Of a stretch of 64,000 bases of DNA, positions 8,229-58,084 are shown one piece after another. The notes below the pieces were generated by a model. That model had not been told where the DNA came from. It ran no database searches and saw only the letters and a program-made list of their open reading frames with translations. Positions within the stretch are counted from its first letter, which is position 1; every line of letters starts with the position of its first letter. The position numbers and the translations under genes were made by a program. The DNA is from Anaerolineales bacterium (GTDB lineage: Bacteria > Chloroflexota > Anaerolineae > Anaerolineales > Villigracilaceae), in contig JAVEWN010000006.1 of assembly GCA_034004515.1 (NCBI GenBank), forward strand, positions 6,615 to 70,614, given 5' to 3'.

Positions 8229-8283
8229 GCAGAATGCAGAATGCAGAATGCAGAATTTTCATTCCACATTCTGCATTCTGCAT
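8229..8283 (-). repeat. Heptamer tandem repeat (GCAGAAT x4) folding into a long hairpin
   Basis: GCAGAAT repeats at 8229-8256, and CATTCTG x2 on the other arm. This gives a 23-bp stem (8234-8256 / 8261-8283) around a 4-nt loop. Lies between tRNA-Gln and glmU. Confidence 0.85.
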
Positions 8284-8293
8284 TTCAATGAGG

Positions 8294-8364
8294 CTGGGGC
8301 GCCTGGATTCGAACCAAGATCCACGGCTCCAAAGGCCGGTGTGCTGCCATTGCACCACGCCCCA
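8294..8364 (-). tRNA. tRNA-Gln (anticodon TTG)
   Basis: Hand-folded cloverleaf: acceptor TGGGGCG/CGCCCCA, D stem GTGC/GCAC, anticodon stem CCGGC/GCCGT with loop CTTTGGA, T arm CTTGG-TTCGAAT-CCAGG, discriminator G. CCA is not encoded. Confidence 0.85.
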
Positions 8365-8418
8365 GTGAGCGGGCAATATTGTATCACAGGGTTTTGCAGC
8401 ACGCAACCAGACAATTTT

Positions 8419-9444
8419 TTAGTCAGCATCCCCATTTTTGGGGGCCAGCCCCAACTGGGCGGCCTGTTCGTAGGTGAGTTTATCGGGCTCGGTATACTGC
8501 GGGCCTTGCTCGAGGGCCTGATCCCAAAAAGCATTGGCATCGATTTTGTTATCGGGTACTTTTCTGAGGAGTTCCTCGAATTCCAGCGGAATGGTGGCCG
8601 ATTCCATGAAAGCAGGGATTCCGTGCGGGATGGGTTCTTCAACCGGCGACTCGCCTTCGATTTGTTCAAAAATTTCTACAATTTTTTGTTTGCTGGCATT
8701 GAGCGTATTAATGGTTTTAGAAATGGACAATAAATCGGCCAGCCCGCGCCCAACCACCCACAAGACATGTGATTTTCCGAGCGGGATGAAAACAAGATCG
8801 TGCTCGTCGCAATCAAACAGGTGAAGATGGTAATTGCTCTTGCCCAACAAGCTGGCGGCTTTCTGGGCGGCGTTGTGCATCCCCATCAGCGAGGAAATCA
8901 ACGAAACCTTGTGGTTGGTGTCTGGCAGCTGGCCGGCTTCGGCCTGAACGTGCCCAAGGCTGTCGAGCAGGAAAACCGCGTCCGCAGCCAGGTCTTTGCG
9001 AATTCCTACCAGCAGGTCGGCCAGGGTTTGGTTATCTTCTGGCTCGGGCTCTGCGGAAGACTGCAAGATGGTGCGGGCCAGGCCGAGAGATCGCTCAACA
9101 GCGTCCAAAAAGTCGGCCATCGGGACGGGCTTGGTAAAGAAAGCATCTGCGCCTGCTTTCCCAATATCAGCCCGGGTTTTTGGTTCAGAGACGCCAGAAA
9201 TAATGATGATTTTCATCTCAGGATAGCGGGCGCGCATTTTTTGCATCAATTCAAGGCCGCTCATGCCCGGCAAGCGATAATCGACCACCAGCAAATCGAC
9301 CGAAACGCGGCTGGCTTCCAGCAGCGCTTCTTCGCCAGAAGGAGCTTCGCTCACATCCAGTCCCTGCTCAATTGTTTCAAGCGCCGAGCGTAATAAACGG
9401 CTTACTTCGCGCTGATCGTCCACAATCAAAATACGTTTTGTCAT
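8419..9444 (-). CDS. Response regulator: receiver domain fused to a Roadblock/LC7-like domain and an acidic tail
   Basis: Start set to the ATG at 9444 (AGGTGG upstream). REC motifs ILIVDDQ, LLVVDYRLPGMSG and IIIISG. The central region (AVFLLDSLGHVQAEAG...VFIPLGKSHVLWVV) resembles Roadblock/MglB-type domains. Confidence 0.8.
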   Translation of the reverse strand: MTKRILIVDDQREVSRLLRSALETIEQGLDVSEAPSGEEALLEASRVSVDLLVVDYRLPGMSGLELMQKMRARYPEMKIIIISGVSEPKTRADIGKAGADAFFTKPVPMADFLDAVERSLGLARTILQSSAEPEPEDNQTLADLLVGIRKDLAADAVFLLDSLGHVQAEAGQLPDTNHKVSLISSLMGMHNAAQKAASLLGKSNYHLHLFDCDEHDLVFIPLGKSHVLWVVGRGLADLLSISKTINTLNASKQKIVEIFEQIEGESPVEEPIPHGIPAFMESATIPLEFEELLRKVPDNKIDANAFWDQALEQGPQYTEPDKLTYEQAAQLGLAPKNGDAD

Positions 9445-9523
9445 TTTAACCACCTGAGATCGAGGATGGAAGTATTATAAATCAAAACTTTCCCCCGTCT
9501 CTGTCAAAGCGAGGGAAAGTCTG

Positions 9524-10537
9524 TCACTCATACAGCCAGCACGAAACCCAATGGTCTGCGCCAACTTCTTTGAGCAGCGGTTCTTCCTGCGAACAAATCT
9601 GCATGGCAACCGGGCAGCGCGGATGAAAGCGGCAGCCCTTTGGCGGGTTGAGCGGGCTGGGCACGTCCCCTTTAAGGATGGTGCGTTCGCGCTTGAGGGT
9701 CGGGTCTGGAATCGGAATGGCCGACATGAGGGCTTTGGTATAAGGGTGGAGCGGGTTGGCGAACAACTCATCCCGCGCTGTCAGCTCGACGATTTTACCC
9801 AGGTACATGACCGCCACGCGGTCTGAAATATGCTCGACAACGCTCAGGTTATGGGCAATGAAAAGGTAGGTCAGGCCGAATTCGGCTTGCAAATCTTTCA
9901 AAATGTTCAAAACTTGTGACTGAATGGAGACATCCAGGGCCGAAACAGGCTCGTCGCAAACGATGAATTTGGGCCGCAGCGCCAGGGCGCGCGCGATCCC
10001 AATCCGCTGGCGCTGCCCGCCTGAAAATTCATGCGGATAACGCCGGGCATGATAATCTTCGAGGCCAACTTTCTTAAGCGTGTCGAGCATCATCTCGAAA
10101 CGCTGCTGGCGATCACCCACGTTGTGGATGTTCAAGCCCTCCATCACCGATTCGCCAATCGGCATGCGCGGGTCAAGCGAGGCATACGGATCTTGGAAAA
10201 TGATTTGCATATTACGGCGCATGTGCTTTAATTCCGCGCCGCGTAATTTGAGCACGTTCTGACCGTCAAAAGTGACTTCCCCTGAAGTCGGCTCGATCAA
10301 CCGCAGCATCGAACGCCCGACGGTGGTTTTGCCGCAGCCCGATTCGCCCACCAGCCCCAATGTCTCTCCTTCACGGACGGTAAAGGAGACCTTGTCGACA
10401 GCCTGAACCTGGGCAACCACCCGCTGCAACAAGCCGGCCCGGACCGGGAAATATTTAACCAGATTCTCAACCTTAACCAACTCTTTGGTATTTTTGGGCA
10501 GCGTCGGTTGGGGCTGTCTTTCGAGCTTTTCTGTCAT
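9524..10537 (-). CDS. Oligopeptide/dipeptide-type ABC transporter ATP-binding protein (OppF/DppF-like), second pair
   Basis: Start moved to the ATG at 10537 (AGGAGA upstream). Walker [10 protein letters not shown], signature FSGGQRQR, C-terminal HPYT / CRFHPRC motif. Confidence 0.9.
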
Positions 10538-42605: not shown

Positions 42606-42725
42606 TGGGGACAGGTTCTTTTGAACTCGTCCCAATTTGATGATACTGAACTTTGCGTTATTTCACATCATGATTTTGGATGGTTTTTCTTATTACCCGA
42701 AAGAGTGAAGCCGGAGCCGGGGGAT

Positions 42726-42942: not shown

Positions 42943-43746
42943 TCAACCTCGCCTGACCAACGCTGCCAGGAGGATGCTGACCAGGTACAGGCCCATCAGC
43001 GGCAGCATCACCAATCCCATGTTGACCGGGTCAACCGTGGGTGTAACCGCCGCAGCGACGATCGCCATGATCACCAGGGCATAGCGCCAGCCTTCCAGCA
43101 GCTGTTTTGCGGAGACGAATTTCAGCTTGGCCAGGAACATAATCACCAGCGGCATTTCAAAACAGAGGCCGATCCAGAACATTAAGCGTGTGATGAAATC
43201 GAAATAGTTTTCAGGGCGAACCTGGGTGGTAATGCCCAGAAAATTCGTCAGGAAAGGGACTGCCGTCGGCAGCATTACAAACCAGGTGAAAGCCACTCCG
43301 CCCGCAAAGAGGATCGTCGCAAAAGGCACGATGAGCAGTAGCCAGCGGCGTTCGCTCGTTTTCAGGCCGGGCAGGATGAAGGCCATCAACTGATAAATGA
43401 TGAAGGGCATCCCCAGGATGAACCCGCCCAGCAGGGAAACCTTCATAAAGGTGGCGATGTTCTCGGTAATCTCGATTGAGATTAGTTTCTCCGTGCCGCC
43501 GATCGGCGCGGCCAGGTAATCGATAATCTGCTGCGCGAAGATAAAGCTGAAAGCGGTCGCGGCCACCAGCGCGGCAAACGCCTTGAACAGCCTGCGACGC
43601 AGTTCGTCCAGGTGCTGAAGCAAGGGGGCCGAAGTTTCAAGCTGGGTGCTGGCTTTTTGATGGGCGCGTCCAAATGCGCCCAAGTAGCCAGCCCAGTTCC
43701 GTTTGGCCTTCTTCTCCGCTAACGTTTCCTTGTCACGCGCAGACAT
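42943..43746 (-). CDS. tatC: Twin-arginine translocase subunit TatC
   Basis: LLQHLDELRRRL start region, six TM helices, conserved TatC layout. Confidence 0.9.
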   Translation of the reverse strand: MSARDKETLAEKKAKRNWAGYLGAFGRAHQKASTQLETSAPLLQHLDELRRRLFKAFAALVAATAFSFIFAQQIIDYLAAPIGGTEKLISIEITENIATFMKVSLLGGFILGMPFIIYQLMAFILPGLKTSERRWLLLIVPFATILFAGGVAFTWFVMLPTAVPFLTNFLGITTQVRPENYFDFITRLMFWIGLCFEMPLVIMFLAKLKFVSAKQLLEGWRYALVIMAIVAAAVTPTVDPVNMGLVMLPLMGLYLVSILLAALVRRG

Positions 43747-43936: not shown

Positions 43937-45259
43937 TTATATATCCGATAAACGAAAATCTTTAGGGTAGGTCAGGTCAAGTTTGAGTTCCCGCAGGTAG
44001 GTTTCCCCGCCACGCTCCTCGAGGACGTTAGTCGATATACCCACCTCGATATCGAGTTTTTTCAACATCCTGATCTTGCTGACATGAAAAACAAGGCTGC
44101 CGGGCTTGTCACCGGCCCTGTAATCGCGATAGCCATTCTTTTGGAAAGCCGCCTTTGCGATTTCGGCGTCTTTGCCAAAGACCTTGGCCGCCTTCAAGAA
44201 GTAGTCGCGGCGTGAAAAGTATAGCACATTCATTTTAACGGGCTTCAGATCCTGCTGATAAATCTGGCCGGTGTGTTTGTTTTCGAGCGAGCAGTAATGG
44301 ACGCCCAGTTGCAGGCCTTGCTCCAAAGCAAACTCGATCAGGTCGAGGCAGGCCTGCTCACTGCCGGCCACAGGCAGCCCGCCGGCATACCAGTAGTTGT
44401 ACAGCACCCGGAAAGGCCGGGCTTTGATCAGATAGCCGCGCGCGCGGTATTCCTGGGCGTTGTGGAGCGGGAAACAAAATTCGAGCAAGTTGATTCCGAA
44501 GACGCCCAAACGCTCCAGTTCAAGCAAAATTTCCTGCATGGCCTCCCGCGAATCGGGTAAAACCGGCATCTCGACCATGACGTTCGGGATATACTCACGC
44601 GCCAGAGCGATCTGGTCGAAGGTGTGCTGGCGCGCGGTGGGCGTATCTTCAACCCGAATGCTGAAACGGATTTCATCCATGCCGGCCTCTTTGAAGGCCT
44701 GCAAGGTCTCACGCTCCAGCTGATCGCCGCAGGTGTAAAGACGCGTATAGGCTTTGGGAAAGTTCTGGCGGGCATGTTGGAAAAAGTTGATCGTTTCTTC
44801 TTTGTAAAGCAAGGGTTCACCGCCGGTCAGAGCCAAATGCTGGGCAGGCCCGCCGCTCTGTTGGAGGGCGTCCAGTTCGGCGGCTACGTCGCGTTTATGC
44901 TCGCGGTGATGCTGATAGTCTTCCTGGTTCGGGTTGAAACAGAAAAAACAATCGCGGTGACATTTAAGCGAGATAAAGAATGTTCTGCTGCCAATGCCGC
45001 GCTGGCAAGCCAGGCAACCGCCCGAGATGCGCTGGGTATAGACGCTTTTCGCATCATTGCGCACGATTGCGCCGCGTTTACCCAGATCAGACAGGCGCTG
45101 GGCCACCTGCTGGCTGTCATCCAGCGCTTCAACGTCGAGGCCCATCTGGCGCACCTGATCCATGAAATCCTGATAGATTTGGACGTACTGCCCGGCCTGT
45201 GACCTCAGTTCAGGGTTGCGGATGGAGGCCAGTGTACTCTCGTTGATCTCAATAATCAT
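43937..45259 (-). CDS. Radical SAM protein, unknown substrate
   Basis: CX3CX2C cluster CHRDCFFC at about residue 100 and a GGEPLL SAM-binding motif. Overlaps the upstream gene by 11 nt. Confidence 0.85.
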   Translation of the reverse strand: MIIEINESTLASIRNPELRSQAGQYVQIYQDFMDQVRQMGLDVEALDDSQQVAQRLSDLGKRGAIVRNDAKSVYTQRISGGCLACQRGIGSRTFFISLKCHRDCFFCFNPNQEDYQHHREHKRDVAAELDALQQSGGPAQHLALTGGEPLLYKEETINFFQHARQNFPKAYTRLYTCGDQLERETLQAFKEAGMDEIRFSIRVEDTPTARQHTFDQIALAREYIPNVMVEMPVLPDSREAMQEILLELERLGVFGINLLEFCFPLHNAQEYRARGYLIKARPFRVLYNYWYAGGLPVAGSEQACLDLIEFALEQGLQLGVHYCSLENKHTGQIYQQDLKPVKMNVLYFSRRDYFLKAAKVFGKDAEIAKAAFQKNGYRDYRAGDKPGSLVFHVSKIRMLKKLDIEVGISTNVLEERGGETYLRELKLDLTYPKDFRLSDI

Positions 45260-46451
45260 CGGGCTGCTCCACTGCTACAGGTTTGTTCCGTTTAAATCCG
45301 GGCGGCAGGACAGAACCAAACCGGTTTTCACGGCGGTATTGGCACAGCTCGCACAGCCGCGTGGCCCCGCGTTTTGCCGTCAGCGCGGCGCACTGCTCAC
45401 ATTTGATCAACTCACCCGCCTGGAGGACAGCGATGGCGTCCCCAAAAATATCCGCAAACTGGGGCGAACGGTCGAGGCGGATGGCATCCGGCGCGCAAAC
45501 GTGGACGCACAATCCGCAAGCCACGCAGTCCGGCGCGGCGAATTTTAGGGCGAAGGTGGTTTGGTCTTCATCTTTTTCAAACTGCAAAGCGCCGGTTGGG
45601 CAGGCCCGCGCGCAGGCGGCGCAGGCGGTGCAGGCTGCACTGACTTGGAGCGAGCCGAATCCAAACTCTCCCAGGTTTAAGTTTTCAGCCGCGCTGGGGG
45701 CAGGCAAATGGCCGAGTGCGTTGACGGTGCGTTTGTGGTTGCGCCCGGGGCGCGGGCCAGCCTGAGTCTGTCCATATTGCATGGCGCGCGCCATCGCAAC
45801 CTGACCCTGGCGGGCCAGCATCCGAAACAGGTCGCGCCGCGAGAGCGGCGGGTTGCTGGCGTTCCAGAGCGGGCGCTCGATTGCCTGGTCGAGGCCGGAG
45901 ACGCAGCGCAACGAGTCGCCGCGACCCCAGGCTGCAAGCAGCTCTTTGGCGCGCGCAACCTGGGCTTCGACTTCGGGCTGCAAAGCGGCCCATTTGCAAG
46001 TGGAACAGGCATCAGTCCGGGCCACGACCTGTTCGAGGCCGAGCGCGGCCAGGGCCAGGTAAGTCCCGCTCCCCAGCCCGGCGAGACAGCCTCGAACCTG
46101 GATGCCCACGCTCGTTTGGGCGATGCCGGCCTCGCAAGCAGGATTCAACTCACAAAGCAGTTCGAGGGTCTGATCTTCCAGGTGGGTGACAGCGTTCAGA
46201 AGCGGCGTGACCGCATCGTCCGCGCTGTACGCGCCGACCGGGCAGACCGTCAGGCAGGCCAAACAGCCCTCGCATTTTTTCGGGTCGAGGCTTGGCGGTT
46301 GGCCGGGCGTAATCGCGCCGACCGGGCAGATATTAAAACATGCCGCGCACTCTGAATGCTGGTCACGCGTATGCAGGCAGCGTTCAGCATCCAAAATGAC
46401 TTGCGAACGGTCAAGTGAGGCAAACCGTTCGGCAGCATCGAGCAGACTCAT
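45249..46451 (-). CDS. Multi-cluster 4Fe-4S ferredoxin-domain protein (about 400 aa)
   Basis: Start moved to the ATG at 46451 (ATGA overlap with torD-like). Motifs CAACFNICPVG, CEGCLACLTVCPVG, CTACAACARACPTG and CVACGLCVHVCAPD, plus extra Cys pairs. Confidence 0.8.
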   Translation of the reverse strand: MSLLDAAERFASLDRSQVILDAERCLHTRDQHSECAACFNICPVGAITPGQPPSLDPKKCEGCLACLTVCPVGAYSADDAVTPLLNAVTHLEDQTLELLCELNPACEAGIAQTSVGIQVRGCLAGLGSGTYLALAALGLEQVVARTDACSTCKWAALQPEVEAQVARAKELLAAWGRGDSLRCVSGLDQAIERPLWNASNPPLSRRDLFRMLARQGQVAMARAMQYGQTQAGPRPGRNHKRTVNALGHLPAPSAAENLNLGEFGFGSLQVSAACTACAACARACPTGALQFEKDEDQTTFALKFAAPDCVACGLCVHVCAPDAIRLDRSPQFADIFGDAIAVLQAGELIKCEQCAALTAKRGATRLCELCQYRRENRFGSVLPPGFKRNKPVAVEQPDDY

Positions 46452-47152
46452 AGCGTGGCTACCTTCGGCAGGGGCACTTGCAGCATCTGGGCCGCGGCCA
46501 ACAGCGCGCCATGCGCCAGATGGGCCATTCCGCGATAGAAATCGGTCGAGGCGTGCTGCTTGGCCAGGGTCGCCCAAGCCGGCCCCCAGCGCAGGAGATG
46601 CTCCAAGAGAAAATCACGCTGAGCTTGCAGGACATCGTCCAGCGATTGCTGATCTGCCTGTTCGATTGCCCGCAAGCCGCGCGAGGCAAGGTGAGACACA
46701 AAAAGCAGTTCCAAACCGATGTGATCGTCTGGTTCCTTGTTAATTTGTTCGATCTGCATCCCAAAACGCGCATACCAGTTGCGCACCTGAATGGTTTGCT
46801 CCTGGAAGACGAGCCGCTCGTTGTTGAAGTAAACCGATTCCCAGGGAACCGCGGGCATGGAACCCAAGCCAATAAACAAGCGGGTATAGTCCATTCTCAG
46901 ATCATTAAATTTCTGGTCAGAAATGCCGCCGGCCTGTTCGTCCGCCCACTTTTGGAGAATTTCCAAGCCGCGCACGATTTCGATCTGGGCTGCGCCAAAC
47001 GGCGATTCGCTAAAGACCTCGTCGCTGACCAATTGATTCAGCCATTCACGGTCTGGCTCCTGGTAGAGCGCTCTGCCGAGCAAGCTGAATAGTAATACTT
47101 CTCCGACAAGTGCTGCCGTTAAGTCGTCTGTTAAGATCATTTTATTGTTCAT
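46448..47152 (-). CDS. TorD/DmsD-family molybdoenzyme maturation chaperone
   Basis: DYTRLFIG...PWESVY...DHIGLELLF pattern typical of the TorD/DmsD family. Confidence 0.8.
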   Translation of the reverse strand: MNNKMILTDDLTAALVGEVLLFSLLGRALYQEPDREWLNQLVSDEVFSESPFGAAQIEIVRGLEILQKWADEQAGGISDQKFNDLRMDYTRLFIGLGSMPAVPWESVYFNNERLVFQEQTIQVRNWYARFGMQIEQINKEPDDHIGLELLFVSHLASRGLRAIEQADQQSLDDVLQAQRDFLLEHLLRWGPAWATLAKQHASTDFYRGMAHLAHGALLAAAQMLQVPLPKVATL

Positions 47153-47164
47153 TGCGTCTCCAAT

Positions 47165-50140
47165 TTAATTCTGGCGGATTTTGAAGCGCCGCCAGGCTAA
47201 GTATAGGCCTCTGATTAAGAATGCTGCAATAACAATCAGCACCACTATATACGTAACGAAGGTCACAGCTTGGGCAATGTTAATTCCAATTTGGGCCAGG
47301 CGGTCACGGATTTGGGCCGGGAGGGAGGGTTCCCATTTGGCTGGCAAGAGGGTTTCATCCCCGCGTGGAAGCGACACAACCAGCGTTCCCTCATGAGCGA
47401 CCGGGATGGGGAGATTCTGTTCGGAAAGGAAAACCATTTCTCCGGCTCTGACTGGCACTTCCTGCCCGTCCCGCGTCCGAATGAGGGCTTCTCCCTCGAA
47501 CAAATACAACCAACCGCCCCGCGCCGGGTGATATTCCAAAGCAAAGGAACCGCGCGTTAGCGTGATCTGTTTGCCCGCCACGCGGAAATTGAGTGCTTCG
47601 GCCTTTTGGTTCTGGCCCCAGACCCAGCCGGTTGCCAGGCTGCGAATCCCCAGCGATTCTTCGGAGATCGTCTCAGGCGGTAGGGTGATGTTTCCATCTC
47701 CCCAGGGCAGGAGCCTGGTTTCTGGCTGGCGAACCAGTGCAAAGTCGATCTTCTGGGCCGGCCCGTCCGCCAGGTCCACCACCCGGGCCTGGCTGTAATA
47801 ACCGGGCGCGTTGGCAATCAGGGTGGCTTTTAGCGGGTCGAGGCCAAAGATGCGATACTCCCCGTTAAGCGGATTAACGGGGGAGGCCGGGTCTGAGGCG
47901 GCTGTCGCCCAGCCAAAGGGCAGCGAGACTCCATCCTGGCCGGACAAGCGCCCGGCAGCCCAGGCGTTGCCAGTCTTCTGGATCTCGATTGTGATCTCAG
48001 CTTGAGCATCTTTGGTCAGATCAACCTGGGAGGCGGCCGCCTGGTAGCCGCGTCTGTTCGCGGATGGATCCAGAAACAGCTGGTATTTACCGCTCGGCAG
48101 GTCGGCGAAGGTGAAATTTCCATTTTCCGCCAGCGTGGTGTGGGAGGTTCCATCCGGCAGATGGACAGCCCAGATCTCGAACGGTTCGAGCCGGTCGGGG
48201 CTGGTCAACTGTCCGCTGATCTGGCCCTGACTGGTGCGGACAAAGACTGTCACCGGATCGTGGCCGGCTGCGCCGGGCGCAAGCTCTACCACAACCGATT
48301 CGAGGCTCTCGTACAAATATCCATTCAGGGAAGTGGGCGGAACGCTGATCGTGTATTGGGTCGCGGCCTGGGAAAGGGCTTCGAGGGACAGCCGGGCAAT
48401 GCCGTTCGCGTCGCTGGTTTCGCCTGCAAATTGGTCGCGCCATTCATACAGGATGGCCGCCGCGCGCACAGAAAGCCCGGAAATGGGCTCGCCATTCTTG
48501 CTATCAAGCACGCGCACGTCCATTTCCAAATCCCTGCCCGTATCGACAGTAAACCAGCGTTCGTCCGAAGCCTGCCCGCCATTCGGAGAAGCAGCCGTGA
48601 TGAGAAGTTGAACCTGTCCATCTGGCAGGGAAGCCTGGCTTTTGAATTCCTCGTGACAGGAGGCGCAATCCGGGTCAGCAGCTTTGGCTCCGGCCACGAT
48701 CATGGCCCCCTCCGGGTTGATGGCAAGGCTGAAGGTAAATGCACCATCCGACTCTGGTTGGGTGAATAATTCGGCAGTCCGTTGCCCGCCCGACCAGATT
48801 TCCATTCTGACGGTAACTTCGTTTTGCGGGCCAGTATAAAATACGCGCCCAACCACAAATGCCGGAGAAAAATTGCGTCCGCTGCTATACAACGTTTCCC
48901 CATTGGTGGGGTAGTTGATCTGAACCGCGAGATTTTCAGACGAGATCGGAAGCCCGACCGGGTCGGCGGGTGGAAGATAGGTAATCGGAGATACCGCCTT
49001 GCTTGAGCGCGGGAAGAAGGGGCACCAGTTCATGCTGACGCCATTGACATGGCACGATTCGCAGCTCATTTGAATGACGCGCGGCGGGGCGCTCATCCCG
49101 ATTGGATGGTGACAGGCCCGACAGTCGCTGGGAGTATCTGCCTGCGGAAAATCTGCGGCGCTCGGGTTACTTAAATCCCACAGCCGGAGCGTGTTGTCGC
49201 TCGAACCCGAAGCGACGGTTTTTCCATCCGGGGCGAAGGCGACGCTGTAAACAAAATCCGTGTGTCCCACCAGGGTGCGCAGCAGGCGGCCATCAGCCGT
49301 GTCCCATAACTTGACGGTGGCATCGACAGACCCGCTCGCCAGGCTTTTGCCGTCGGGTGAGAAGGATAAACTCAGGACGCTGGCGCGATGGTCAGCAAGG
49401 AAATATTTTATCTGGCCCGAAGCAACATCCCATAAAATGACTTTGGTATCGAACGCGCCCGAAGCCAGCGTTTTGCCATCGGGCGAGAAGGCCAGCCCCC
49501 GCACCCAATCCTTGTGCCCCTTAAGCGTTTTGACCAAACTCCCGCTTGAAGCATTCAACAACTGGACGGTGGTATCCTGCAAGCCCACCGCGAGCAGCTC
49601 GTCATCCGGCGAGAACACCAAGACTCGCGCCCCAGGCGAACCGGCGATGGACAAGGCCTCGCTCCCGCTTTCAACGTTCCAAATCCGGATGATGTCATCA
49701 TCCGCAGCGGTCGCAAGCAAAGCGCCATCCGAAGAGAAGGCAATACTGCGCACCCAGCCGTTATGGGCGGCAATCGTTCGGATTTCCTTTTCGTCAGAAA
49801 GACGCCAAAAGCGGAGTGTGCCATCGAACAATCCCGCAGCGACGGTCTGTCCATCCGGGGAAAAAGCCACGCTGCGCGCCCAGACTGCGGTGCTAAAAAA
49901 ATGCGCCTGTGAGAATTGCTGTGTATCAAAAATGGAAACGCCCGCAGATCTGGCAACTGCCAGCCATTTGCCATCCGGGGAATAAGCGACCGAATTGGCG
50001 ATGTCGCGTCCGGCGCTGGAAAGAGTAATAACACGGCTGCCGCCATCCGGAGACAACTGGAAAGCGGTGGAAGGAGTCGGAAAGCAGAATGAAATCAGAA
50101 TAATAACTGAAAGGGTCAGTAAATAGCGTTTGAGAGCCAT
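47165..50140 (-). CDS. Fusion protein: signal/anchor, 7 WD40 repeats, three CxxCH heme motifs, Ig-like domains, a FecR-like domain, C-terminal TM helix
   Basis: Start moved to the ATG at 50140 (MALKRYLLTLSVIILISF). WD40 repeats are of the form GH.D.V.S.AFSPDGK.LASGS.D.T..LWD. CRACH is encoded at 49109-49123, CESCH at 49049-49063 and CASCH at 48653-48667. The FecR-like stretch is GKQITLTRGSFALEY...GEALIRTRDGQEVPVRAGEMVFL. The C-terminal helix is VTFVTYIVVLIVIAAFLI. Confidence 0.8.
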   Translation of the reverse strand: MALKRYLLTLSVIILISFCFPTPSTAFQLSPDGGSRVITLSSAGRDIANSVAYSPDGKWLAVARSAGVSIFDTQQFSQAHFFSTAVWARSVAFSPDGQTVAAGLFDGTLRFWRLSDEKEIRTIAAHNGWVRSIAFSSDGALLATAADDDIIRIWNVESGSEALSIAGSPGARVLVFSPDDELLAVGLQDTTVQLLNASSGSLVKTLKGHKDWVRGLAFSPDGKTLASGAFDTKVILWDVASGQIKYFLADHRASVLSLSFSPDGKSLASGSVDATVKLWDTADGRLLRTLVGHTDFVYSVAFAPDGKTVASGSSDNTLRLWDLSNPSAADFPQADTPSDCRACHHPIGMSAPPRVIQMSCESCHVNGVSMNWCPFFPRSSKAVSPITYLPPADPVGLPISSENLAVQINYPTNGETLYSSGRNFSPAFVVGRVFYTGPQNEVTVRMEIWSGGQRTAELFTQPESDGAFTFSLAINPEGAMIVAGAKAADPDCASCHEEFKSQASLPDGQVQLLITAASPNGGQASDERWFTVDTGRDLEMDVRVLDSKNGEPISGLSVRAAAILYEWRDQFAGETSDANGIARLSLEALSQAATQYTISVPPTSLNGYLYESLESVVVELAPGAAGHDPVTVFVRTSQGQISGQLTSPDRLEPFEIWAVHLPDGTSHTTLAENGNFTFADLPSGKYQLFLDPSANRRGYQAAASQVDLTKDAQAEITIEIQKTGNAWAAGRLSGQDGVSLPFGWATAASDPASPVNPLNGEYRIFGLDPLKATLIANAPGYYSQARVVDLADGPAQKIDFALVRQPETRLLPWGDGNITLPPETISEESLGIRSLATGWVWGQNQKAEALNFRVAGKQITLTRGSFALEYHPARGGWLYLFEGEALIRTRDGQEVPVRAGEMVFLSEQNLPIPVAHEGTLVVSLPRGDETLLPAKWEPSLPAQIRDRLAQIGINIAQAVTFVTYIVVLIVIAAFLIRGLYLAWRRFKIRQN

Positions 50141-50209: not shown

Positions 50210-51106
50210 CTACAGACCAATACCCACTTTCGTTGCGTAGAAGATGTAGCGTCCCATCGTCTCGCCTAGCAGGACAAGGATGAAGGCGCTGTAGACCACA
50301 TTCGCCAGGACCGCTTCCCGGCCCACGACAGAAGCATTCTTATACATATAGAAGGCCAGCAAGCCCGCTCCGGCGAAGACAAAGACCAGGCGCAGAACAA
50401 ACATGCCGCCCAGCGGGCCGATCATCAGACCGAGGCTCTCCAGCGCGGCTGCGCCCTGGGTGGAAAGGTAGATGGCGTAGACTGGCAGGACTACGAACTC
50501 AACGCCCACCAAGACGATCGCCGCCAGCGCGATACCACGCAGGGCGTCGCGAAACAGGCTGAGTTGGATCTCATCTTTGGAACGGGTTGCCACCAAGGCC
50601 ACGGCCACCAGCAACGCGCCCAGCAAAAGGGAGGTCGTGATGAAGGTGATCGGCGTGGCAAAGGTATTCCAAGCCGGTTGGGTGCGGATCATGTAGACCT
50701 GGGCCATGGCATAGGTCTGAAACAAGCCGACCGCGGCGGCAACCCAGCCAATGACCGTGCGAACGGAATCGGATGATATTTTGCGCCACTGCATGACGGT
50801 GTAAATCCCCGCCAGGATCACAAAGATCACGACAATAATCACCTCACGGCTCAGCCAGGATGAGCCCAGGTTGGGGACAGCCCGGGTAATGTTAAGCGGG
50901 TTTCCCAGGTGCAGCAGGGAGGCCAGCAGAGCCAGCAGAATGATGGGCACGACGATAAAAAGCGGCTTATCGGTCAGCCGATCGGCCTGTTCCAGGCCCG
51001 CTTTGCGGACAGCATAGGTGCGAACGATCAAGAGGATGATCAACGCGCCAGTTGAAACCTGTCCGAGGATAGTAAAGATGAGCAAAGACCATTCACGGAT
51101 ATCCAT
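50210..51106 (-). CDS. DmsC-type membrane anchor subunit (8 helices)
   Basis: Polytopic protein immediately after the DmsB-like gene. MDIREWSLLIFTIL..., SSWLSRE and MAQVYMIRTQPAWN motifs are shared with the paralog at 55069-55989. Confidence 0.8.
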   Translation of the reverse strand: MDIREWSLLIFTILGQVSTGALIILLIVRTYAVRKAGLEQADRLTDKPLFIVVPIILLALLASLLHLGNPLNITRAVPNLGSSWLSREVIIVVIFVILAGIYTVMQWRKISSDSVRTVIGWVAAAVGLFQTYAMAQVYMIRTQPAWNTFATPITFITTSLLLGALLVAVALVATRSKDEIQLSLFRDALRGIALAAIVLVGVEFVVLPVYAIYLSTQGAAALESLGLMIGPLGGMFVLRLVFVFAGAGLLAFYMYKNASVVGREAVLANVVYSAFILVLLGETMGRYIFYATKVGIGL

Positions 51107-51118
51107 ATCACTTCTCCT

Positions 51119-51733
51119 TTAATCGATATTCAGAACTTTGCCGCCGCCAGATTTGGAGGTGCGGGTATCCTTGTGGGGAGTGTAGACGATGGCGGGCCGG
51201 GTCAGGGACGGGTCAGGCATGGGAGCCGGGTTGTTGAGCACTCCGTGTTTGGCTTTCAGTTCATTGATATCGCCATATTCCAGTGCGCGGTAAGGGCAGG
51301 CTTCGACACAGGCCGGCTTTCCGCCCTTTTCCTGAAGCTCGATGCAGAAATCGCACTTCGTCATAACGCCCGCATCCTCGTTGAACTGCGGCGCACCGTA
51401 CGGGCAAGCCCAGGAGCAGTAGCGGCATCCGATACATTGATCGGGATTGATGAGAACGATCCCATCCTCCCGTTTGCTGATGGCAGAGGCCGGGCAAACT
51501 TCCATGCAGATCGGCTGTTCGCAGTGCATACAGGCGGTGGAGACGAAGTAATGGAAGACGCCGCTCGGTACGCTCTGGTCGCCATCCTGAATCCATTCGC
51601 CGCCGCCGTATTCGTAGACACGCCGCCAGCGCACCCCGGTCGGTAAATCTTTGCGGTCTTTGCAGGCAATCTCGCAGGCTTTACAGCCTGTGCAGTTTGC
51701 CAGGTTAACATAGAAACCAAGTTGTTTAGCCAT
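51119..51733 (-). CDS. 4Fe-4S electron-transfer subunit of a DMSO-reductase-family enzyme (DmsB-like)
   Basis: Four Cys groups: CTGCKACEIAC, CMHCEQPICMEVCP, CIGCRYCSWACPYG and CDFC...CVEACP. Confidence 0.9.
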   Translation of the reverse strand: MAKQLGFYVNLANCTGCKACEIACKDRKDLPTGVRWRRVYEYGGGEWIQDGDQSVPSGVFHYFVSTACMHCEQPICMEVCPASAISKREDGIVLINPDQCIGCRYCSWACPYGAPQFNEDAGVMTKCDFCIELQEKGGKPACVEACPYRALEYGDINELKAKHGVLNNPAPMPDPSLTRPAIVYTPHKDTRTSKSGGGKVLNID

Positions 51734-51744: not shown

Positions 51745-54153
51745 TTAAGCCTTCTCAACCTGCACCAGGTTGGTGTGTTGCGGGTTGCCCTTGGCAAAAG
51801 GTGTCGGGTGATACTTGGTTAACGTGTTCGTACAACCACGAATATCCACACCATTTTCGTCCGGGGTAAACCAGGCCCCTTGCGGCAGGCTGGTGACGCC
51901 TGGGCGCAGGCGGTTTGTAACATACGCCGGAACCCGAACCACGCCGCGATCATTGAATATTTTGACCATATCGCCGTTCTTGATATTGCGCAGATCGGCA
52001 TCGAGCGTGTTCATCCATAAGGACTGAACATGCGCTTCCTGCAAAGCAGCCACATTATCAAAGGTGGAATGGGAACGTTGAACCGCGTGGTGACCAACCA
52101 TCAAAAGCGGGTACTTCTCGCGCAGCGGATCGCTGACCCCTTCCCACTCAGGGATGTATTGCGGAATGGCAGGAATCTCTTGCGGGCTATTCAGCGCGGC
52201 CAGGGTCGGCGAGTAGACCTCGATTTTACCGGTCGGGGTTCTGAGCGGATTGGCAACCGGGTCTGCGCGGAAGTCTTTGCCCGCAATGATCCCGCCGCCG
52301 CCAGTTTTTTTGTAATAGCCGATCTCTTTGAACTCTTCGTAGGTTGGGAAGTCTTCGTTCTTTTCCCGGGCAACCGCTACCATATCGCGCAGCCACTCTT
52401 CACGGGTGGTGTGCCCGTCGCGGAATTCTTCGCCCAGGCCGAGACGGTCTGCCAGCTGTTCGGCCACCCAAAGCACATCTCTGGTTTCGTAGAGCGGCTC
52501 GATTAGCTGATGGTTGAAGAGCACAAAGTTCGATTTGCCTTCGCCGTTTCCACCGGTGATGTTTTCGGCTTCGAAGTGGGTGGTATCAGGCAAGAGGATA
52601 TCTGCCATCTTGGCGCTGTGGGTCATGACGACATCTGCGACGACGATAAATTCCAACTTGGTGTCGTCTTGCAGCATTTTGGTGGTGGCGTTGACGTCCG
52701 AGTGCTGATTGGTGATGCAGTTGCCAGCCCAGTTCCACATGAATTTCATGTCTGAGCTCATTTTGTCCGCGCCCTTAATCAGGTCACGCAGCCCGGAGGT
52801 CATCTCGTGGCCGCGCTCGATGAAATCGGGCCACATATAAACAGAGATGGTGGTTTTTACGGGATTTTCGCCAGCCGGGAAACTGCCGATGCTGATGTTT
52901 GTGCCGCCGCTTGGGCGAGTGCCCGTGCCGCCGCCAGGGATACCGAAATTGCCGGTCATCGCGGCCAGGATGGGCAGGGCCCGGACTGGCTGTTCGCCAT
53001 AGGCCCGGCGCTGCATTCCCCAGCCCTGAATCATGGCACAGGGTTTGGTGCTGGCAATCTCATGCGCCAGTTTAATGATGCGTTCGGCAGGAATGCCGGT
53101 GATGGGGGCAGCCCAGGCGGGCGTTTTCGCGGTTTTATCCGCGCCGCGCCCCATGATATAAGCCATGTATGAGGAATTAGGCGGAGCGCCTTCGGGCAGC
53201 GTATCTTCGTCAAAGCCGACCGCGTGGGTTGCCATGAACTCCTTATCGTACATCTCATCCTTGACCATGACATACGCCATGGCGTCCATCAAGGCGTTGT
53301 CGGTTCCAGGGTAGATCGGAATCCAGTCTGCTTCCAAGGCAATCGCTGTGTCATTGTAGACCGGGTCCACGACAATGAACTTGGCCCCGGCTTCTTTTGC
53401 CATCAAGTAATGGTAGCCCATGCCTTTGCCGCCGGCTCGGGTAACCATGCCGTTGTCAGAGACGAGCAGCACCAATTTGGAATTGACGAGGTCATCGGCG
53501 GAATTGCTGCCCATGTTGGTAATCAGAGGCATGGCAGCAGAATAGCAAGCCGTGCTGTAAGTTCCATAGAAATTGACGTAGCCGCCGAACAAGTGCATCA
53601 TCCGCGCAATCGGGCCAACGCCCTTATAGGTGTTGTCGATCCCGCCCGCAATCTGACCGGTAGCGTAGTTGTAGTAAATTGATTCGTTGCCGTATTTTTC
53701 TTTAACTTCCTTCAACTTATTCGCAATCGTATCCAGGGCTTCTTCCCAGGAAATGCGCTCAAATTTTCCTTCGCCGCGTTTGCCAACCCGTTTCATGGGG
53801 TATTTCAAGCGTTCTGGCGAATAAACGCGCCATCGTTGAGAGCGGCCGCGCAAACACGGGATCGCCTTGGGTTGTTCAAAGGTGTCGACCGGGTCCTGGT
53901 CCGGCAACATGCGTACAACCGTGCCATCTTTGACTTCGGCCCAAAGAATACAGCGGCTGCCGCAGTTATGATAGCAGCTGGTGGTCATAATCTCGCTGCT
54001 CTCGGCAGCAGCAGCCTGAGCGGCTTTCAAGCCATAACTTACGCCTCCGGCCAATGCAGCGGTGCCGCCCAATGCCGCGCTCCACTTCAAGAAGCTGCGC
54101 CGGGAGAGAACCGTATCGGTCAGGGTTTTTGTTAGGAAATCCTTTTCAGTCAT
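51745..54153 (-). CDS. Molybdopterin oxidoreductase catalytic subunit (DmsA/YnfE-like), Tat-exported
   Basis: Twin-arginine signal SRRSFLKWSAALGGTAALAGG. N-terminal FS0 cluster motif CYHNCGSRC. 802 aa with DMSO reductase family layout. Substrate not assignable. Confidence 0.9.
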   Translation of the reverse strand: MTEKDFLTKTLTDTVLSRRSFLKWSAALGGTAALAGGVSYGLKAAQAAAAESSEIMTTSCYHNCGSRCILWAEVKDGTVVRMLPDQDPVDTFEQPKAIPCLRGRSQRWRVYSPERLKYPMKRVGKRGEGKFERISWEEALDTIANKLKEVKEKYGNESIYYNYATGQIAGGIDNTYKGVGPIARMMHLFGGYVNFYGTYSTACYSAAMPLITNMGSNSADDLVNSKLVLLVSDNGMVTRAGGKGMGYHYLMAKEAGAKFIVVDPVYNDTAIALEADWIPIYPGTDNALMDAMAYVMVKDEMYDKEFMATHAVGFDEDTLPEGAPPNSSYMAYIMGRGADKTAKTPAWAAPITGIPAERIIKLAHEIASTKPCAMIQGWGMQRRAYGEQPVRALPILAAMTGNFGIPGGGTGTRPSGGTNISIGSFPAGENPVKTTISVYMWPDFIERGHEMTSGLRDLIKGADKMSSDMKFMWNWAGNCITNQHSDVNATTKMLQDDTKLEFIVVADVVMTHSAKMADILLPDTTHFEAENITGGNGEGKSNFVLFNHQLIEPLYETRDVLWVAEQLADRLGLGEEFRDGHTTREEWLRDMVAVAREKNEDFPTYEEFKEIGYYKKTGGGGIIAGKDFRADPVANPLRTPTGKIEVYSPTLAALNSPQEIPAIPQYIPEWEGVSDPLREKYPLLMVGHHAVQRSHSTFDNVAALQEAHVQSLWMNTLDADLRNIKNGDMVKIFNDRGVVRVPAYVTNRLRPGVTSLPQGAWFTPDENGVDIRGCTNTLTKYHPTPFAKGNPQHTNLVQVEKA

Positions 54154-54256
54154 TCCTCGCCTCCATTGTATTGAGTAGATGTTTCCATTCGCTCACGAAG
54201 AGCTGCCCCTCTATCCGCAATGAAAATCTGTTTTTTATTATTTTCCATTTTCACTC

Positions 54257-54313
54257 TCCTGATAGTTTTAACGGCCAGACCAGCCATATTTGTGCTTTTA
54301 TACACTATCAGGA
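54257..54313 (-). promoter_or_regulatory. 10-bp inverted repeat pair in the dmsA-like promoter region
   Basis: TCCTGATAGT (54257-54266) and ACTATCAGGA (54304-54313) are exact reverse complements 37 nt apart. They bracket a TATAAA element on the minus strand, 105-160 nt upstream of the ATG at 54153. Confidence 0.3.
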
Positions 54314-54387
54314 TACCCCCAACCCCGCCCGCTCACATCCTTCTGTGGGACAATCCGGCCTCACCCGAAAGAGTGATCCCTGAAAAA

Positions 54388-55044
54388 CTATCCGTCGCGC
54401 GGCATCACCAAGCCGTGTTTCATGGCATACGTAGCTGCCTGAGTCCGATTCTCAAGCTGTAATTTTCCCAAAATACTTTTTAGATGGCTTTTAACCGTGT
54501 TAATCGAGATCGAAAGCTTCTCGGCAATGATCTGGTTCGTCGCGCCGCTTGCAACCAGTCGCAGCACAAATAGCTCTCTTTCGGTCAGGGCCTGTTCGCC
54601 CTTCTCGTCATCCACCATCCGGTTGGCAACCGCCTTCAAGAGTTTTCCGGCAATGGCGCGGGTCATAGCCGGCTCGCCGGAGATGACTCCCTTCAGGAGG
54701 TCGAACAATTCATCCGCGTCCAGGCTTTTCAGCAAATAACCTGCGGCTCCCACCTGAACCGCCTCGTATAGATGTCCATCTCTTTCGGAGGAGGTCAGCA
54801 TCACAATCGAGATTTCAGGAAAGCGGGCGTGGATCTTCTTGGCAGCCTGCAAACCATCCATCTCCGGCATATAAATATCCATCAGGATCACGTCCGGGTG
54901 CAGTTGCTCAGCCATCTGAACGGCTTCTTCGCCGGTTTCCGCCTCACCGATCACTTCGACCAGGTCCTGACGGGTTCGCATCAAGCTGATCATCCCCTGG
55001 CGGAACAGTTTATGGTCATCGGCAATCAATACTTTTATGGGCAT
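54388..55044 (-). CDS. NarL/FixJ-type response regulator (REC + LuxR HTH)
   Basis: KVLIADDHKLFRQG and DVILMDIYMPEMDG receiver motifs. C-terminal HTH LTERELFVLRLVASGATNQIIAEKLSISINTVKSHLKSILGKL. Confidence 0.92.
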   Translation of the reverse strand: MPIKVLIADDHKLFRQGMISLMRTRQDLVEVIGEAETGEEAVQMAEQLHPDVILMDIYMPEMDGLQAAKKIHARFPEISIVMLTSSERDGHLYEAVQVGAAGYLLKSLDADELFDLLKGVISGEPAMTRAIAGKLLKAVANRMVDDEKGEQALTERELFVLRLVASGATNQIIAEKLSISINTVKSHLKSILGKLQLENRTQAATYAMKHGLVMPRDG

Positions 55045-55068: not shown

Positions 55069-55989
55069 TTAAACACCAATCCGAACATGGGTCGCATAAA
55101 AAAGGAAGCGGCCCAGAATCTCGCTGACCAATATAACAATACAGGCGCTGTAAACGGGCACCATTAACTCTTTCAGATCTTGATCGGACTGAATGGCCCG
55201 GAAAACCGAGCTTGCCAGCCAGATAATTCCAGCCAGCGGCAGCCCCAGTCGCAGCACCAGCAAGGGCAGATATAAACTTGTCAATAATTCAAAACTGGCT
55301 TGGGCCCAGGCGTCCCCGGCCCGCAAGAAAGAAATCTGATAAAAGTTGAGGGCCAGAATACCCAGCCAGGCCAAAATCGAAGCATAGGTGGCCCCAACCA
55401 AAATTTTACGAACCAGCAAGCTGCGCTGACCAAACTGCTGGCCTTCAAGCACCGTTGAAAAGGATAGATCCATCAGCAGGATGGTGGGTAAAGCAATAAA
55501 GCCGAGCGTGAACACGGAAGCATAAAAAGAAAAAACTGTGATCGGTGAATTCCAGGCTGTCTGGGTCGGCAGCAGATAAATCTGCGCCATGCAGAAGACC
55601 ATAATCAGCCCAAACCCAATCGCCAGCCAGCCCAGCCCGGAAATGAGTTTGTCGTGACCGGCTGTAAACCAATGCAGCCAGAGCAGCCAGGTAATTGTCA
55701 GCGAAAAGAGCAAGGTAAAAACGATCTCGCGGCTCAGCCAGGAGGAGCGGAAGTTTAACACGGCCAAAAATGACCGAAAAGGCTGACTCAAATGAAAATG
55801 CGACCCGACTATGGCCATGACAATCGTAATTGAGATGATTGCAAGCGGAATTTTGGCAATCTGCCTGAGGGCAGGGTAGCCGAGGCTGGCGAGGTGGCGG
55901 GCCCGGATAATCCAGAGCAGCATAAAAACGCCGACAGACAACTGCATCAAGATGGTATAGACCGGCAAAGCCCATTCACGCACGTTCAT
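55069..55989 (-). CDS. DmsC-family polytopic membrane protein (paralog of 50210-51106) located between kinase and regulator
   Basis: Start set to the ATG at 55989 (GAGGTG upstream; MNVREWALPVYTILMQL). Shares SSWLSREI, MAQIYLLPTQTAWN and GRFLFYATHVRIGV with the operon DmsC (SSWLSREV, MAQVYMIRTQPAWN, GRYIFYATKVGIGL). Confidence 0.75.
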   Translation of the reverse strand: MNVREWALPVYTILMQLSVGVFMLLWIIRARHLASLGYPALRQIAKIPLAIISITIVMAIVGSHFHLSQPFRSFLAVLNFRSSWLSREIVFTLLFSLTITWLLWLHWFTAGHDKLISGLGWLAIGFGLIMVFCMAQIYLLPTQTAWNSPITVFSFYASVFTLGFIALPTILLMDLSFSTVLEGQQFGQRSLLVRKILVGATYASILAWLGILALNFYQISFLRAGDAWAQASFELLTSLYLPLLVLRLGLPLAGIIWLASSVFRAIQSDQDLKELMVPVYSACIVILVSEILGRFLFYATHVRIGV

Positions 55990-56002: not shown

Positions 56003-58084
56003 TCAATTTGTCGGGAAAGTATCTGGCTTGGCCGCAAGCCAGGAAGGGTTGTTTGGCAGCTTTTCTTGCGGCAAACACGGTAAAGCGCACTCAACCCGCG
56101 TGCCTGCCCCGGGGAAAGAGTGGACCGTTACACAGCCCTGGACACTGGAAGCGCGTTCCCGCATGGTCTCCAGGCCAAAACTGCGCTTTGAACCCTGGGC
56201 CGCAAAACCAATCCCATCGTCCAATACGGACATGTGAATGTAGTCCGTTTGCTGCTCGTTTTTATAATCGATCAGTACCTTCACGTGGGTCGCCTGGGCG
56301 TGCTTGCGGACATTAGCCAGCGCTTCCTGAAGGATGCAGACCAACTGCACCTCGGCCACAGAAGCAAGATTCAGGTTTCCCTCAATCTTGTTGATAAATT
56401 CAGTTTCAATGCCGGTCTGGATTCCAAATTCCTGCAAATATTCATCGATGGCAGAAGCCAATCCCTTTTCGCTGGCGAGCGTCGTCCGCAGGCTGAGGAT
56501 GTTCTCGCGCACATCGGCATTTGCGACCGAAATCGCCTGCCGCATTTGTCCAAGCTCTGTCTCCAGGTCTGCGCGGCGGTCTTGTTTGAGCAAAGCGCCC
56601 AAGGTCTGAACCTGCAAATTTAAATAACCCAGCACTTGGGCCAGGCCATCGTGCATTTCGCGCGCGATGCGGGAGCGCTCTTCAGTGATCGATAAAGACT
56701 GCAATTGTGAAGTCATCAGGCCATGCTGAAGCGCGATCACGACCTGATCGGCCATATACTCCAGCCAGATTAAATCTACATCCGAATAGGCCTTGGCCTC
56801 TTTCCGGGCAATCCAAATTCCCCCAATCGGTCTATGATCCAAGGCAAAAGAAACCACCGCAACCGCCTCCATTTTATCGTGCGAAAAAAGGCCGGCCTGG
56901 CTCAAATCTGCCAACACTTCCTCTCCGGCAGAGCGGAAGGAGCGGGTCGATTGCAAAGCATTCAGAATGAGCGCGCTCTGGATGGGAGTGGGCGCAGCCA
57001 GCAGTTCGGTTTGCTGGCCGTTTGAATAACATTTCAGTTCCAGGGAAGAATAATCGTCCTGGAGCAGCCCCAAGCCGGCAAAGTCCGAATTCAATAAGTT
57101 GCGCGCGTTCTCGATGATATAGAGCAGGATGCCGTCCACATCTTCGAGTTCGGTGATCTTGCGGTTGATGCTGACCAGGACCTCTGCCCAATTTTCAGCA
57201 ATCTGGCGGGCTGCGATCTGGCTCTCGATGGCCGCTTTTTGAGCGCGGTCGCGTTCCATCTCCAAAAATACGAGTTGGCGTTTGCGAAGCGCGTCGAACA
57301 CGCCCAGGCCTCTCACCATAAAAATGGTGAGCGTAAGCGTAGAGAGCAGCCGCCAAAATTGGATCGGCATGCCGGTTACCTCCAGCACTTTTTGATAATC
57401 GAGCCAGGGAGTCATCAGCCCATACGACGGCACCCCGCCGATATGTTCGCCGATAAAAGCGTTACTGATGACGCGGTCATAGTTGTAATACGAAGCCGGC
57501 CCATACGGCGCAGCCGGGACAATCAACCCCAAGACAAAGGCCTCGAACAAAAAAGCCAGGCCGGTTGCCAGCATTAAGCCAGAAATATCGATCAGGCCCT
57601 GTTTTCTTTGGGCGTGCGCCTGGCGCAGAAAACCAATCCCTGCCATGATACTGCCTGGCAGATAAAGCAGATATCTCGACCAGATATCGATTGGAATTTC
57701 AATCGGTGAAGGGGTGATAAACGTGGTGGCCGCATAGGCGAAGACGTACGAAATCGGGACGATCAAAATACCGAGGATAAATATCGCCCAGGTTGGGAGC
57801 GGCGTCAGGTCTTTTAAGATGTGCCAGCCAAATATCAAAAGCAGCAAGCCGCTGAGTGGTTGGGCAACCACCCGCAAGACCTTTAAGACGATCAGGTACT
57901 CGTCGACACTGCCGCCCACCAGGAACATATCGACCCAGCTGGTAATCCCGCTTACAAATCCAAAGGCGGCCAGCCACGGCAGCTGCTTTTTAAGTGCGAA
58001 ATCCCCGCTTTGCCGAAATTGCAAATACGCAGCCAGCCCCAATCCCCCAAAACACAGCCCGTTAACAAAATAGATAATCATCAT
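56003..58084 (-). CDS. Membrane sensor histidine kinase (multi-TM sensor, GAF-like domain, HisKA_3, HATPase)
   Basis: About 7 N-terminal helices. NarX-type H-box ARELHD-like REMHDGLAQVL, N-box EALANVRKHA, G-box VLDDGIGF ... GAGTRVE. Confidence 0.9.
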   Translation of the reverse strand: MMIIYFVNGLCFGGLGLAAYLQFRQSGDFALKKQLPWLAAFGFVSGITSWVDMFLVGGSVDEYLIVLKVLRVVAQPLSGLLLLIFGWHILKDLTPLPTWAIFILGILIVPISYVFAYAATTFITPSPIEIPIDIWSRYLLYLPGSIMAGIGFLRQAHAQRKQGLIDISGLMLATGLAFLFEAFVLGLIVPAAPYGPASYYNYDRVISNAFIGEHIGGVPSYGLMTPWLDYQKVLEVTGMPIQFWRLLSTLTLTIFMVRGLGVFDALRKRQLVFLEMERDRAQKAAIESQIAARQIAENWAEVLVSINRKITELEDVDGILLYIIENARNLLNSDFAGLGLLQDDYSSLELKCYSNGQQTELLAAPTPIQSALILNALQSTRSFRSAGEEVLADLSQAGLFSHDKMEAVAVVSFALDHRPIGGIWIARKEAKAYSDVDLIWLEYMADQVVIALQHGLMTSQLQSLSITEERSRIAREMHDGLAQVLGYLNLQVQTLGALLKQDRRADLETELGQMRQAISVANADVRENILSLRTTLASEKGLASAIDEYLQEFGIQTGIETEFINKIEGNLNLASVAEVQLVCILQEALANVRKHAQATHVKVLIDYKNEQQTDYIHMSVLDDGIGFAAQGSKRSFGLETMRERASSVQGCVTVHSFPGAGTRVECALPCLPQEKLPNNPSWLAAKPDTFPTN

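Follow-up and report, generated by a model that had tools for sequence, protein, structure and literature searches.

Why does a second gene of the DmsC membrane anchor family lie between a sensor kinase gene and the gene of its response regulator, when the DMSO-type respiratory reductase operon that follows carries a dmsC gene of its own? The window in which this arrangement is found, a stretch of 64,000 nucleotides from an Anaerolineales bacterium (contig JAVEWN010000006.1 of assembly GCA_034004515.1), encodes on its minus strand, in this order, a sensor histidine kinase (HK), the anchor paralog that we term DmsC', a response regulator (RR), and the dmsA, dmsB and dmsC genes (Table 1). How the expression of alternative reductases is matched to the supply of electrons and acceptors is, to our knowledge, understood in few model systems. 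We assign a probability of roughly 0.6 to the reading that DmsC' is a putative quinol-binding co-sensor of the kinase in a three-component system; going by what its sequence and gene context suggest, DmsC' most likely helps the kinase decide when the reductase operon switches on.

An earlier, sequence-only reading of this DNA had placed the open reading frames of HK, the paralog and RR at the positions listed in Table 1, all on the minus strand, and had called them tightly packed. Both observations hold, with a spacer of 13 nt between HK and DmsC' and of 24 nt between DmsC' and RR. The same reading had also described a 15-nt overlap of the paralog start with the HK stop, which is wrong: the HK stop ends at 56003, the DmsC' ATG is at 55989, and all homologs start with MN.REW. 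It is the ribosome-binding site preceding DmsC' (GAGGTGA) that overlaps the HK stop codon, and terminator-like sites are absent from either spacer of the triplet. The HK core resembles NarQ, NarX, LiaS and UhpB, and NCBIfam puts UhpA among the relatives of the RR.

Table 1. Features of the sensor module, the reductase operon and candidate regulatory sites, in window coordinates.
Feature	Position	Strand	Description
Sensor histidine kinase (HK)	56003..58084	-	693 aa; 7-TM input domain, coiled coil, GAF, HisKA_3, HATPase; Pfam
Kinase 7-TM input domain (aa 1-260)	57305..58084	-	N-terminus outside, C-terminus inside; no Pfam family
28-residue insertion, ~aa 198-225, SYYNYDRVISNAFIGEHIGGVPSYGLMT	57410..57493	-	Outward-facing TM6-TM7 loop; candidate DmsC' contact
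DmsC'	55069..55989	-	306 aa; putative regulatory paralog of the quinol-oxidising DmsC anchor; PF04976
NarL/FixJ-type response regulator (RR)	54388..55044	-	Response_reg (REC) + GerE HTH; Pfam, NCBIfam
RR-dmsA intergenic gap			234 bp
7-4-7 inverted repeat, consensus ATCACCC-N4-GGGTGA	54360..54377	.	Candidate RR operator
GATGTGA, -10-like element	54333..54339	-	Inferred promoter; 20-22 nt downstream of the inverted repeat
Conserved dmsA-leader stem, TCCTGATAGT / ACTATCAGGA	54256..54315	-	Sequesters AGGAG; covariation
dmsA	51745..54153	-	DmsA/YnfE-type molybdopterin catalytic subunit, Tat signal; TIGR02166, 964 bits vs cut-off 778; Pfam
dmsB	51119..51733	-	DmsB four-cluster ferredoxin subunit; TIGR02951, 240 bits
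dmsC	50210..51106	-	Canonical anchor of the operon, 298 aa; PF04976, 109 bits; clade separate from DmsC'
WD40 beta-propeller protein	47165..50140	-	Pfam/NCBIfam; part of remaining operon (43937..50140)
DmsD/TorD-like chaperone	46448..47152	-	Pfam/NCBIfam
Polyferredoxin	45249..46451	-	Pfam/NCBIfam
Radical SAM protein	43937..45259	-	Pfam/NCBIfam
Second inverted repeat + GATGTGA, equal spacing	42692..42709	.	81 nt upstream of Moco riboswitch; possible second target promoter
Moco/tungsten-cofactor riboswitch RF01055	42454..42611	-	54.6 bits

The middle protein had been taken for a clear paralog of the operon's own anchor, and this is borne out by BLASTP, which aligns DmsC' with the operon DmsC end to end at 32% identity with an E-value of 1e-30, a significant alignment and not a similarity of hydrophobic composition only. 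Both proteins also match PF04976, with DmsC' scoring 59.6 bits (cut-off 22.3) over profile positions 5-273 of 275, and the four shared motifs that had been picked out (MxxREWxL, SSWLSRE, MAQ(V/I)Y..(R/P)TQ(P/T)AWN and GR(Y/F)(I/L)FYAT.V.IG(L/V)) are all present in the DmsC'/DmsC alignment. When 81 DmsC' sequences, 62 operon DmsC sequences and E. coli DmsC are aligned jointly, DmsC' and DmsC are reciprocally monophyletic, with a mean identity of 47% within DmsC', 52% within DmsC and 31% (maximum 40%) between the clades. This split into two clades indicates a single ancient duplication.

Among the proteins of the cluster DmsC' evolves fastest (mean p-distance 0.52), and this faster rate is the only observation that would speak for a decaying or chance duplicate of dmsC. 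Such a duplicate is ruled out by 124 intact coding sequences of constant length (303-310 aa), by dN/dS values below 1 (0.05-0.5 in close pairs), by the age and monophyly of the clade and by the conserved synteny described below, and the 55 invariant columns in a 33-sequence DmsC' alignment likewise stand against it; we consider its probability negligible. Judged by these alignments, DmsC' is under purifying selection.

Regarding the quinol site, which in E. coli DmsC comprises S62, H65, S82 and E87, where H65, S82 and E87 are reported to be required for binding and oxidising quinol and where H65 and E87 mutants block quinol oxidation or binding (PMC8076601), the equivalents of H65, S82 and E87 are invariant in 81/81 DmsC' sequences (H66, S83 and E88 in the window), and the position equivalent to S62 is a mix of A and S. 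The sequence-only reading had raised the question of whether these residues are kept, and they are. DmsC' in this respect is unlike ActF, described as the only NrfD-like subunit without quinone binding and as lacking the conserved Ser (PMC8076601), since DmsC' retains both the quinone-site Ser and His. Flanking the quinol-site His are DmsC'-specific invariant residues, namely G62, H64, S68 and S73, which in DmsC are A, L, G and A, respectively. With its site kept and the flanking residues changed, DmsC' has the look of a quinol-binding protein whose pocket entrance was reshaped. The AF2 model of DmsC' (pLDDT 86) has eight long TM helices, and its best fold matches in the PDB are ActC (TM 0.67), ActF and PsrC, which makes the fold NrfD-like; a sequence search for a solved DmsC structure returned none. 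When conservation is plotted against membrane depth, it is highest for DmsC' in the outer (P-side) third, where identity to DmsC is also greatest (0.41); in the cytoplasmic (N-side) third this identity is only 0.16.

These features bear on two rival explanations. In the first, DmsC' would be a non-signalling structural subunit, either an alternative or a second anchor, and being encoded among the regulatory genes would do no more than secure its basal expression. The quinol-site residues and the P-side surface that DmsC' shares with DmsC are what such an anchor should retain, the conserved P side fits ordinary DmsB anchoring equally well, and complexes with two NrfD-like subunits do exist, as with ActC and ActF in alternative complex III. 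However, the second NrfD-like subunit of that pair has a different quinone site from that of DmsC', which keeps the Ser and His, and we regard the second-anchor explanation as quite unlikely for this and for further reasons given below. The other rival holds that DmsC' is a ligand-blind inhibitor or scaffold similar to LiaF that is titrated, for example, by new DmsAB or by its own abundance, and that its pocket is vestigial. Plain repression of the kinase is a frequent role of accessory membrane proteins. There is precedent for such repression in apo-TorC, which inhibits TorS (PMC8534201), and a conserved P-side docking surface is also what a titrated scaffold would have. The invariance of H66, S83 and E88 in a clade with a mean identity of only 47% argues against this explanation, as it indicates that the pocket is functional rather than vestigial, and we therefore hold a ligand-blind DmsC' to be improbable, though a little less so than a second anchor.

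We surveyed the arrangement with tblastn using the window's proteins together with a census, covering two collections of loci that were pooled without de-duplication. The first collection is a one-genome-per-species scan that gave 132 DmsC' relatives, of which 80 loci were taken, and the second consists of 80 further loci from a metagenome scan seeded with the sister kinase domain. DmsC' has hundreds of close relatives of 303-310 aa that are mostly named Anaerolineales or Chloroflexi. In these pooled counts the DmsC' gene is located immediately 3' of a kinase gene of the window's type, which carries the loop insertion described below, in 127/127 judgeable loci; RR comes next after DmsC' in 115/117 loci and dmsA next after RR in 102/106 loci. 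The loci are nearly all from Chloroflexota, class Anaerolineae, and three with other taxonomic labels are probably mis-binned. The HK-DmsC'-RR triplet is therefore widespread and intact, occurring in clearly more than 100 genomes and metagenome contigs of Anaerolineae, so that it is neither unique to this genome nor, given the 124 intact coding sequences, built around a decaying paralog. A full-text literature search for a DmsC or NrfD paralog within a two-component system turned up no such paper, in agreement with the earlier remark that the arrangement was not known as described. Two loci (L068 and L105) are exceptions that have no RR next to DmsC' and in which the dms operon has the opposite orientation, so that it runs towards DmsC'.

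This gene order weighs against the second-anchor explanation in two ways. Specifically, 127/127 loci have the DmsC' gene between HK and RR and none has it inside the dmsABC operon, and a separate canonical dmsC follows dmsB in all main-type loci with enough downstream sequence except one. That exception (L151) is also the best support for the rival: its positions 5647-9579 contain dmsA, dmsB and a TorD-like gene and no canonical dmsC, which leaves DmsC' as the sole DmsC-family gene in 10.6 kb, so that DmsC' could be the anchor there.

The kinase partner of DmsC' has an input domain whose homology to any known family was rejected. It has no Pfam match even at an E-value of 10, and a fold search of the PDB with its AF2 model (pLDDT 82, seven TM helices) gave nothing significant, the best hits being generic 7-TM bundles at an E-value of 0.3. 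No other part of the module is as well conserved as the 7-TM domain (59-73% identity), within which conservation is highest in the outward-facing loops. An exhaustive search of public data found 761 representative clusters that carry the 7-TM domain, among which the kinase subtype of the window has only one full-length representative. The relatives comprise a sister subfamily with 39-65% identity and distant members with 28-36% identity, and two of the distant kinases (L086 and L088) adjoin Rieske/cytochrome b/multihaem and COX2/cupredoxin clusters. The 7-TM domain may be a general respiratory-chain sensor domain.

What sets the kinases linked to DmsC' apart is an insertion of 28 residues in the outward-facing loop between TM6 and TM7, which is missing from sister and distant kinases. 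The insertion and the DmsC' gene occur together in 127/127 loci, as compared to 0/10 sister and 0/2 distant loci. Sister kinases that lack the insertion are directly followed by RR in 10/10 loci, with no DmsC', and then by dmsA in 5/10. The insertion is conserved in sequence and yet disordered in the monomer model (pLDDT below 50), which is what is expected of a partner-binding loop, and it faces the membrane side on which DmsC' has its quinol pocket. Both the co-occurrence of DmsC' with the loop insertion and the existence of sister dmsABC operons that have no DmsC' at all count against DmsC' as a second anchor. Note that the relatives of the 7-TM kinase work without DmsC', so the kinase may also sense by itself. 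A 994-aa HK-DmsC' reading frame in one locus (L078) that could be taken for a Rosetta-stone fusion was rejected as a probable frameshift artefact because its kinase C-terminus does not stay in register with those of homologs and the locus is from a nanopore MAG.

We also compared pairwise distances among the proteins of 45 complete loci, where distance correlations between linked genes are weak evidence and are best read against the value of 0.76 for DmsA versus DmsB. DmsC' distances correlate with those of the cytoplasmic part of HK (0.66), RR (0.58) and the HK 7-TM domain (0.52), and less with those of DmsB (0.42), DmsA (0.38) and DmsC (0.31). DmsC' thus tracks HK and RR more closely than DmsB, which is a further point against the second-anchor explanation. 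The sensor module is also found upstream of two markedly different classes of DmsA, one sharing 60-86% and the other 32-38% identity with the DmsA of the window (loci L005-L084), and upstream of two tandem dmsABC sets in four loci (L010, L019, L039 and L048). The presence of the same module in front of two DmsA classes and of tandem sets argues against sensing of one specific substrate chemistry.

On the output side, the 234-bp gap between RR and dmsA contains an inverted repeat that is present, with two or fewer mismatches, in 87/111 dmsA upstream regions, where it is located at -230 from the dmsA ATG (IQR -233 to -226). It is absent upstream of HK and occurs at about one site per locus in 1.33 Mb of genome loci. 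Where the RR-dmsA gap is long, it contains a gene for a c-type cytochrome, which is a multihaem protein with several CxxCH motifs in L011 (11711-12532) and a small monohaem protein in L070 (12996-13427), and the inverted repeat is still at about -225 from dmsA. The possibility that the repeat is an RNA hairpin was rejected, as it exhibits no compensatory changes and its second copy is in a different promoter context, and we favour a DNA operator. A GGATG(T/A) sequence is conserved 20-22 nt after the repeat (GGATG in alignment A4), and from its position we infer that the repeat would be an activator site centred near -42 relative to the inferred dmsA start.

The inverted repeat is also present in sister loci without DmsC', which suggests an ancestral circuit in which a 7-TM kinase and RR act via the repeat on dmsABC. 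One lineage would have added DmsC' and the kinase loop insertion later, on the input side. A second repeat unit precedes the Moco riboswitch, so the same regulator may control cofactor supply. The riboswitch heads an operon for an ABC ATPase, a CbiQ-like protein, a molybdopterin-domain protein and MobB.

Between the inferred promoter and dmsA there is also a conserved leader stem with 10 pairs, 6 of which exhibit compensatory changes, and its covariation of 0.160 was reached in 0/500 shuffles (0.095). The stem encloses GTGAAnAAAnGCACAAA and a GGC..GCC hairpin (alignment A4), and the AGGAG in its 3' arm precedes the start codon of a uORF that is not conserved by 7-8 nt. A conserved leader peptide upstream of dmsA was rejected given that the uORFs are not conserved as peptides, and a search for Rfam matches to the leader, Moco or other, gave none at E-values up to 10. 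The dmsA leader stem may be a new cis-regulatory RNA.

The genes 3' of dmsC, coding for the WD40 protein, the chaperone, the polyferredoxin and the radical SAM protein, are conserved at this location across many loci. The WD40 protein of about 1000 aa, which also has a CarboxypepD_reg domain, keeps its position between dmsC and the TorD-like chaperone in many loci. The polyferredoxin and radical SAM genes (43937-46451) are kept downstream of the reductase genes, are followed in one locus by a gene for an FmdE-like protein (L001, 16863-20088), and may form an uncharacterised maturation module. Finally, a TatC gene (42943-43746, minus strand) lies directly downstream of the dms cluster, which is consistent with export of DmsA via Tat.

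Taken as a co-sensor, DmsC' would be co-translated at regulatory levels with the 7-TM HisKA_3 kinase and the NarL-type regulator, would adjoin the kinase in the membrane and would retain a menaquinol/menaquinone pocket on its outer (P) side. The state of this pocket would be passed to the kinase via the outward TM6-TM7 loop with its 28-residue insertion specific to DmsC'-linked kinases. Phosphorylated RR would then bind the inverted repeat, some 42 bp ahead of the inferred start site of dmsA, and activate dmsABC, and would probably also activate the Moco-riboswitch operon. We infer that HK and DmsC' are in physical contact, in which direction regulation works and what kind of signal is sensed. 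The sequence-only reading had proposed an accessory that senses the quinone pool or the state of the enzyme, and it is supported in part, by the significant paralogy, the retained quinol-site residues and the widespread triplet. The signal could be the redox state of the quinone pool, or it could be turnover or electron flux of DmsAB docked on DmsC', and the conserved P side together with the indifference to DmsA class makes the flux-sensing version attractive. One form of flux sensing, which we view as speculative and rather doubtful, is a substrate-agnostic 'mock enzyme' in which a few DmsAB dimers dock on DmsC' in place of DmsC and the inserted loop of the kinase reads acceptor-dependent quinol turnover. 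A sensor of this type would explain why one module stands before two DmsA classes and before tandem dmsABC sets, and if true it would be the first case where turnover of a respiratory enzyme is sensed via a dedicated anchor paralog.

With the co-sensor reading, a duplicate of a quinol-oxidising anchor has apparently come to serve a two-component system as its input device, and this provides a concrete and testable route by which a membrane could read its quinone pool or the turnover of an enzyme. The arrangement is common in Anaerolineae, a class that is abundant in sludge, sediments and soils. The 7-TM kinase input domain and the structured dmsA leader also lie beyond the curated libraries that were searched.

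How does this module compare with known systems? DmsC' shares with the DmsC/NrfD-like anchors (PF04976; ActC, ActF, PsrC) its family and the 8-TM fold of two four-helix bundles, and with DmsC also the conserved quinol-site His, Ser and Glu. It differs from these anchors in being encoded with regulators and not with DmsAB, in forming its own clade and in the changed residues around the quinol-site His. ArcB-type kinases likewise control respiratory genes in response to the state of the quinone pool, but ArcB itself senses quinones through cytoplasmic PAS cysteines (PMC8534201), whereas here a separate protein would bind the quinol. The TorS/TorR-TorC system is similar in that the quinol-oxidising anchor of a DMSO-reductase-family enzyme signals to the kinase of its own operon (PMC8534201). 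However, TorC is a pentahaem cytochrome and a real enzyme subunit that exerts negative feedback on a periplasmic four-helix-bundle domain, and there is no paralog and no gene in the two-component operon. With BceS-BceAB and DcuS-DctA/DcuB, a membrane machine of the regulated pathway functions as the sensor for the kinase, with sensing of activity or flux (PMC6978683, PMC8534201); in those cases the co-sensor is the working transporter, whereas here it would be a separate paralog that has been set aside and whose partner is a respiratory enzyme.

As an analogue, although not as a member, the DmsC' module is closest to the UhpABC/UhpT system of E. coli, in which UhpC has about 30% identity to UhpT and is the partner of UhpB, a polytopic HisKA_3 kinase (8 TM), and of UhpA (PMC7607045). 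Both systems have a polytopic HisKA_3 kinase with a NarL-family regulator, both have the gene for the co-sensor within the regulatory operon, and in both the co-sensor, or putative co-sensor, is a paralog of the component that is regulated, at a similar distance (about 30% for UhpC and UhpT, 31-32% for DmsC' and DmsC). The kinase input domains are unrelated, with the match to UhpB covering only the kinase core. The co-sensors also differ: UhpC is an MFS transporter and DmsC' is an NrfD-like anchor of the quinol-oxidising type (PF04976). Where UhpC responds to a periplasmic sugar phosphate, the presumed ligand of DmsC' is membrane quinol or electron flux.
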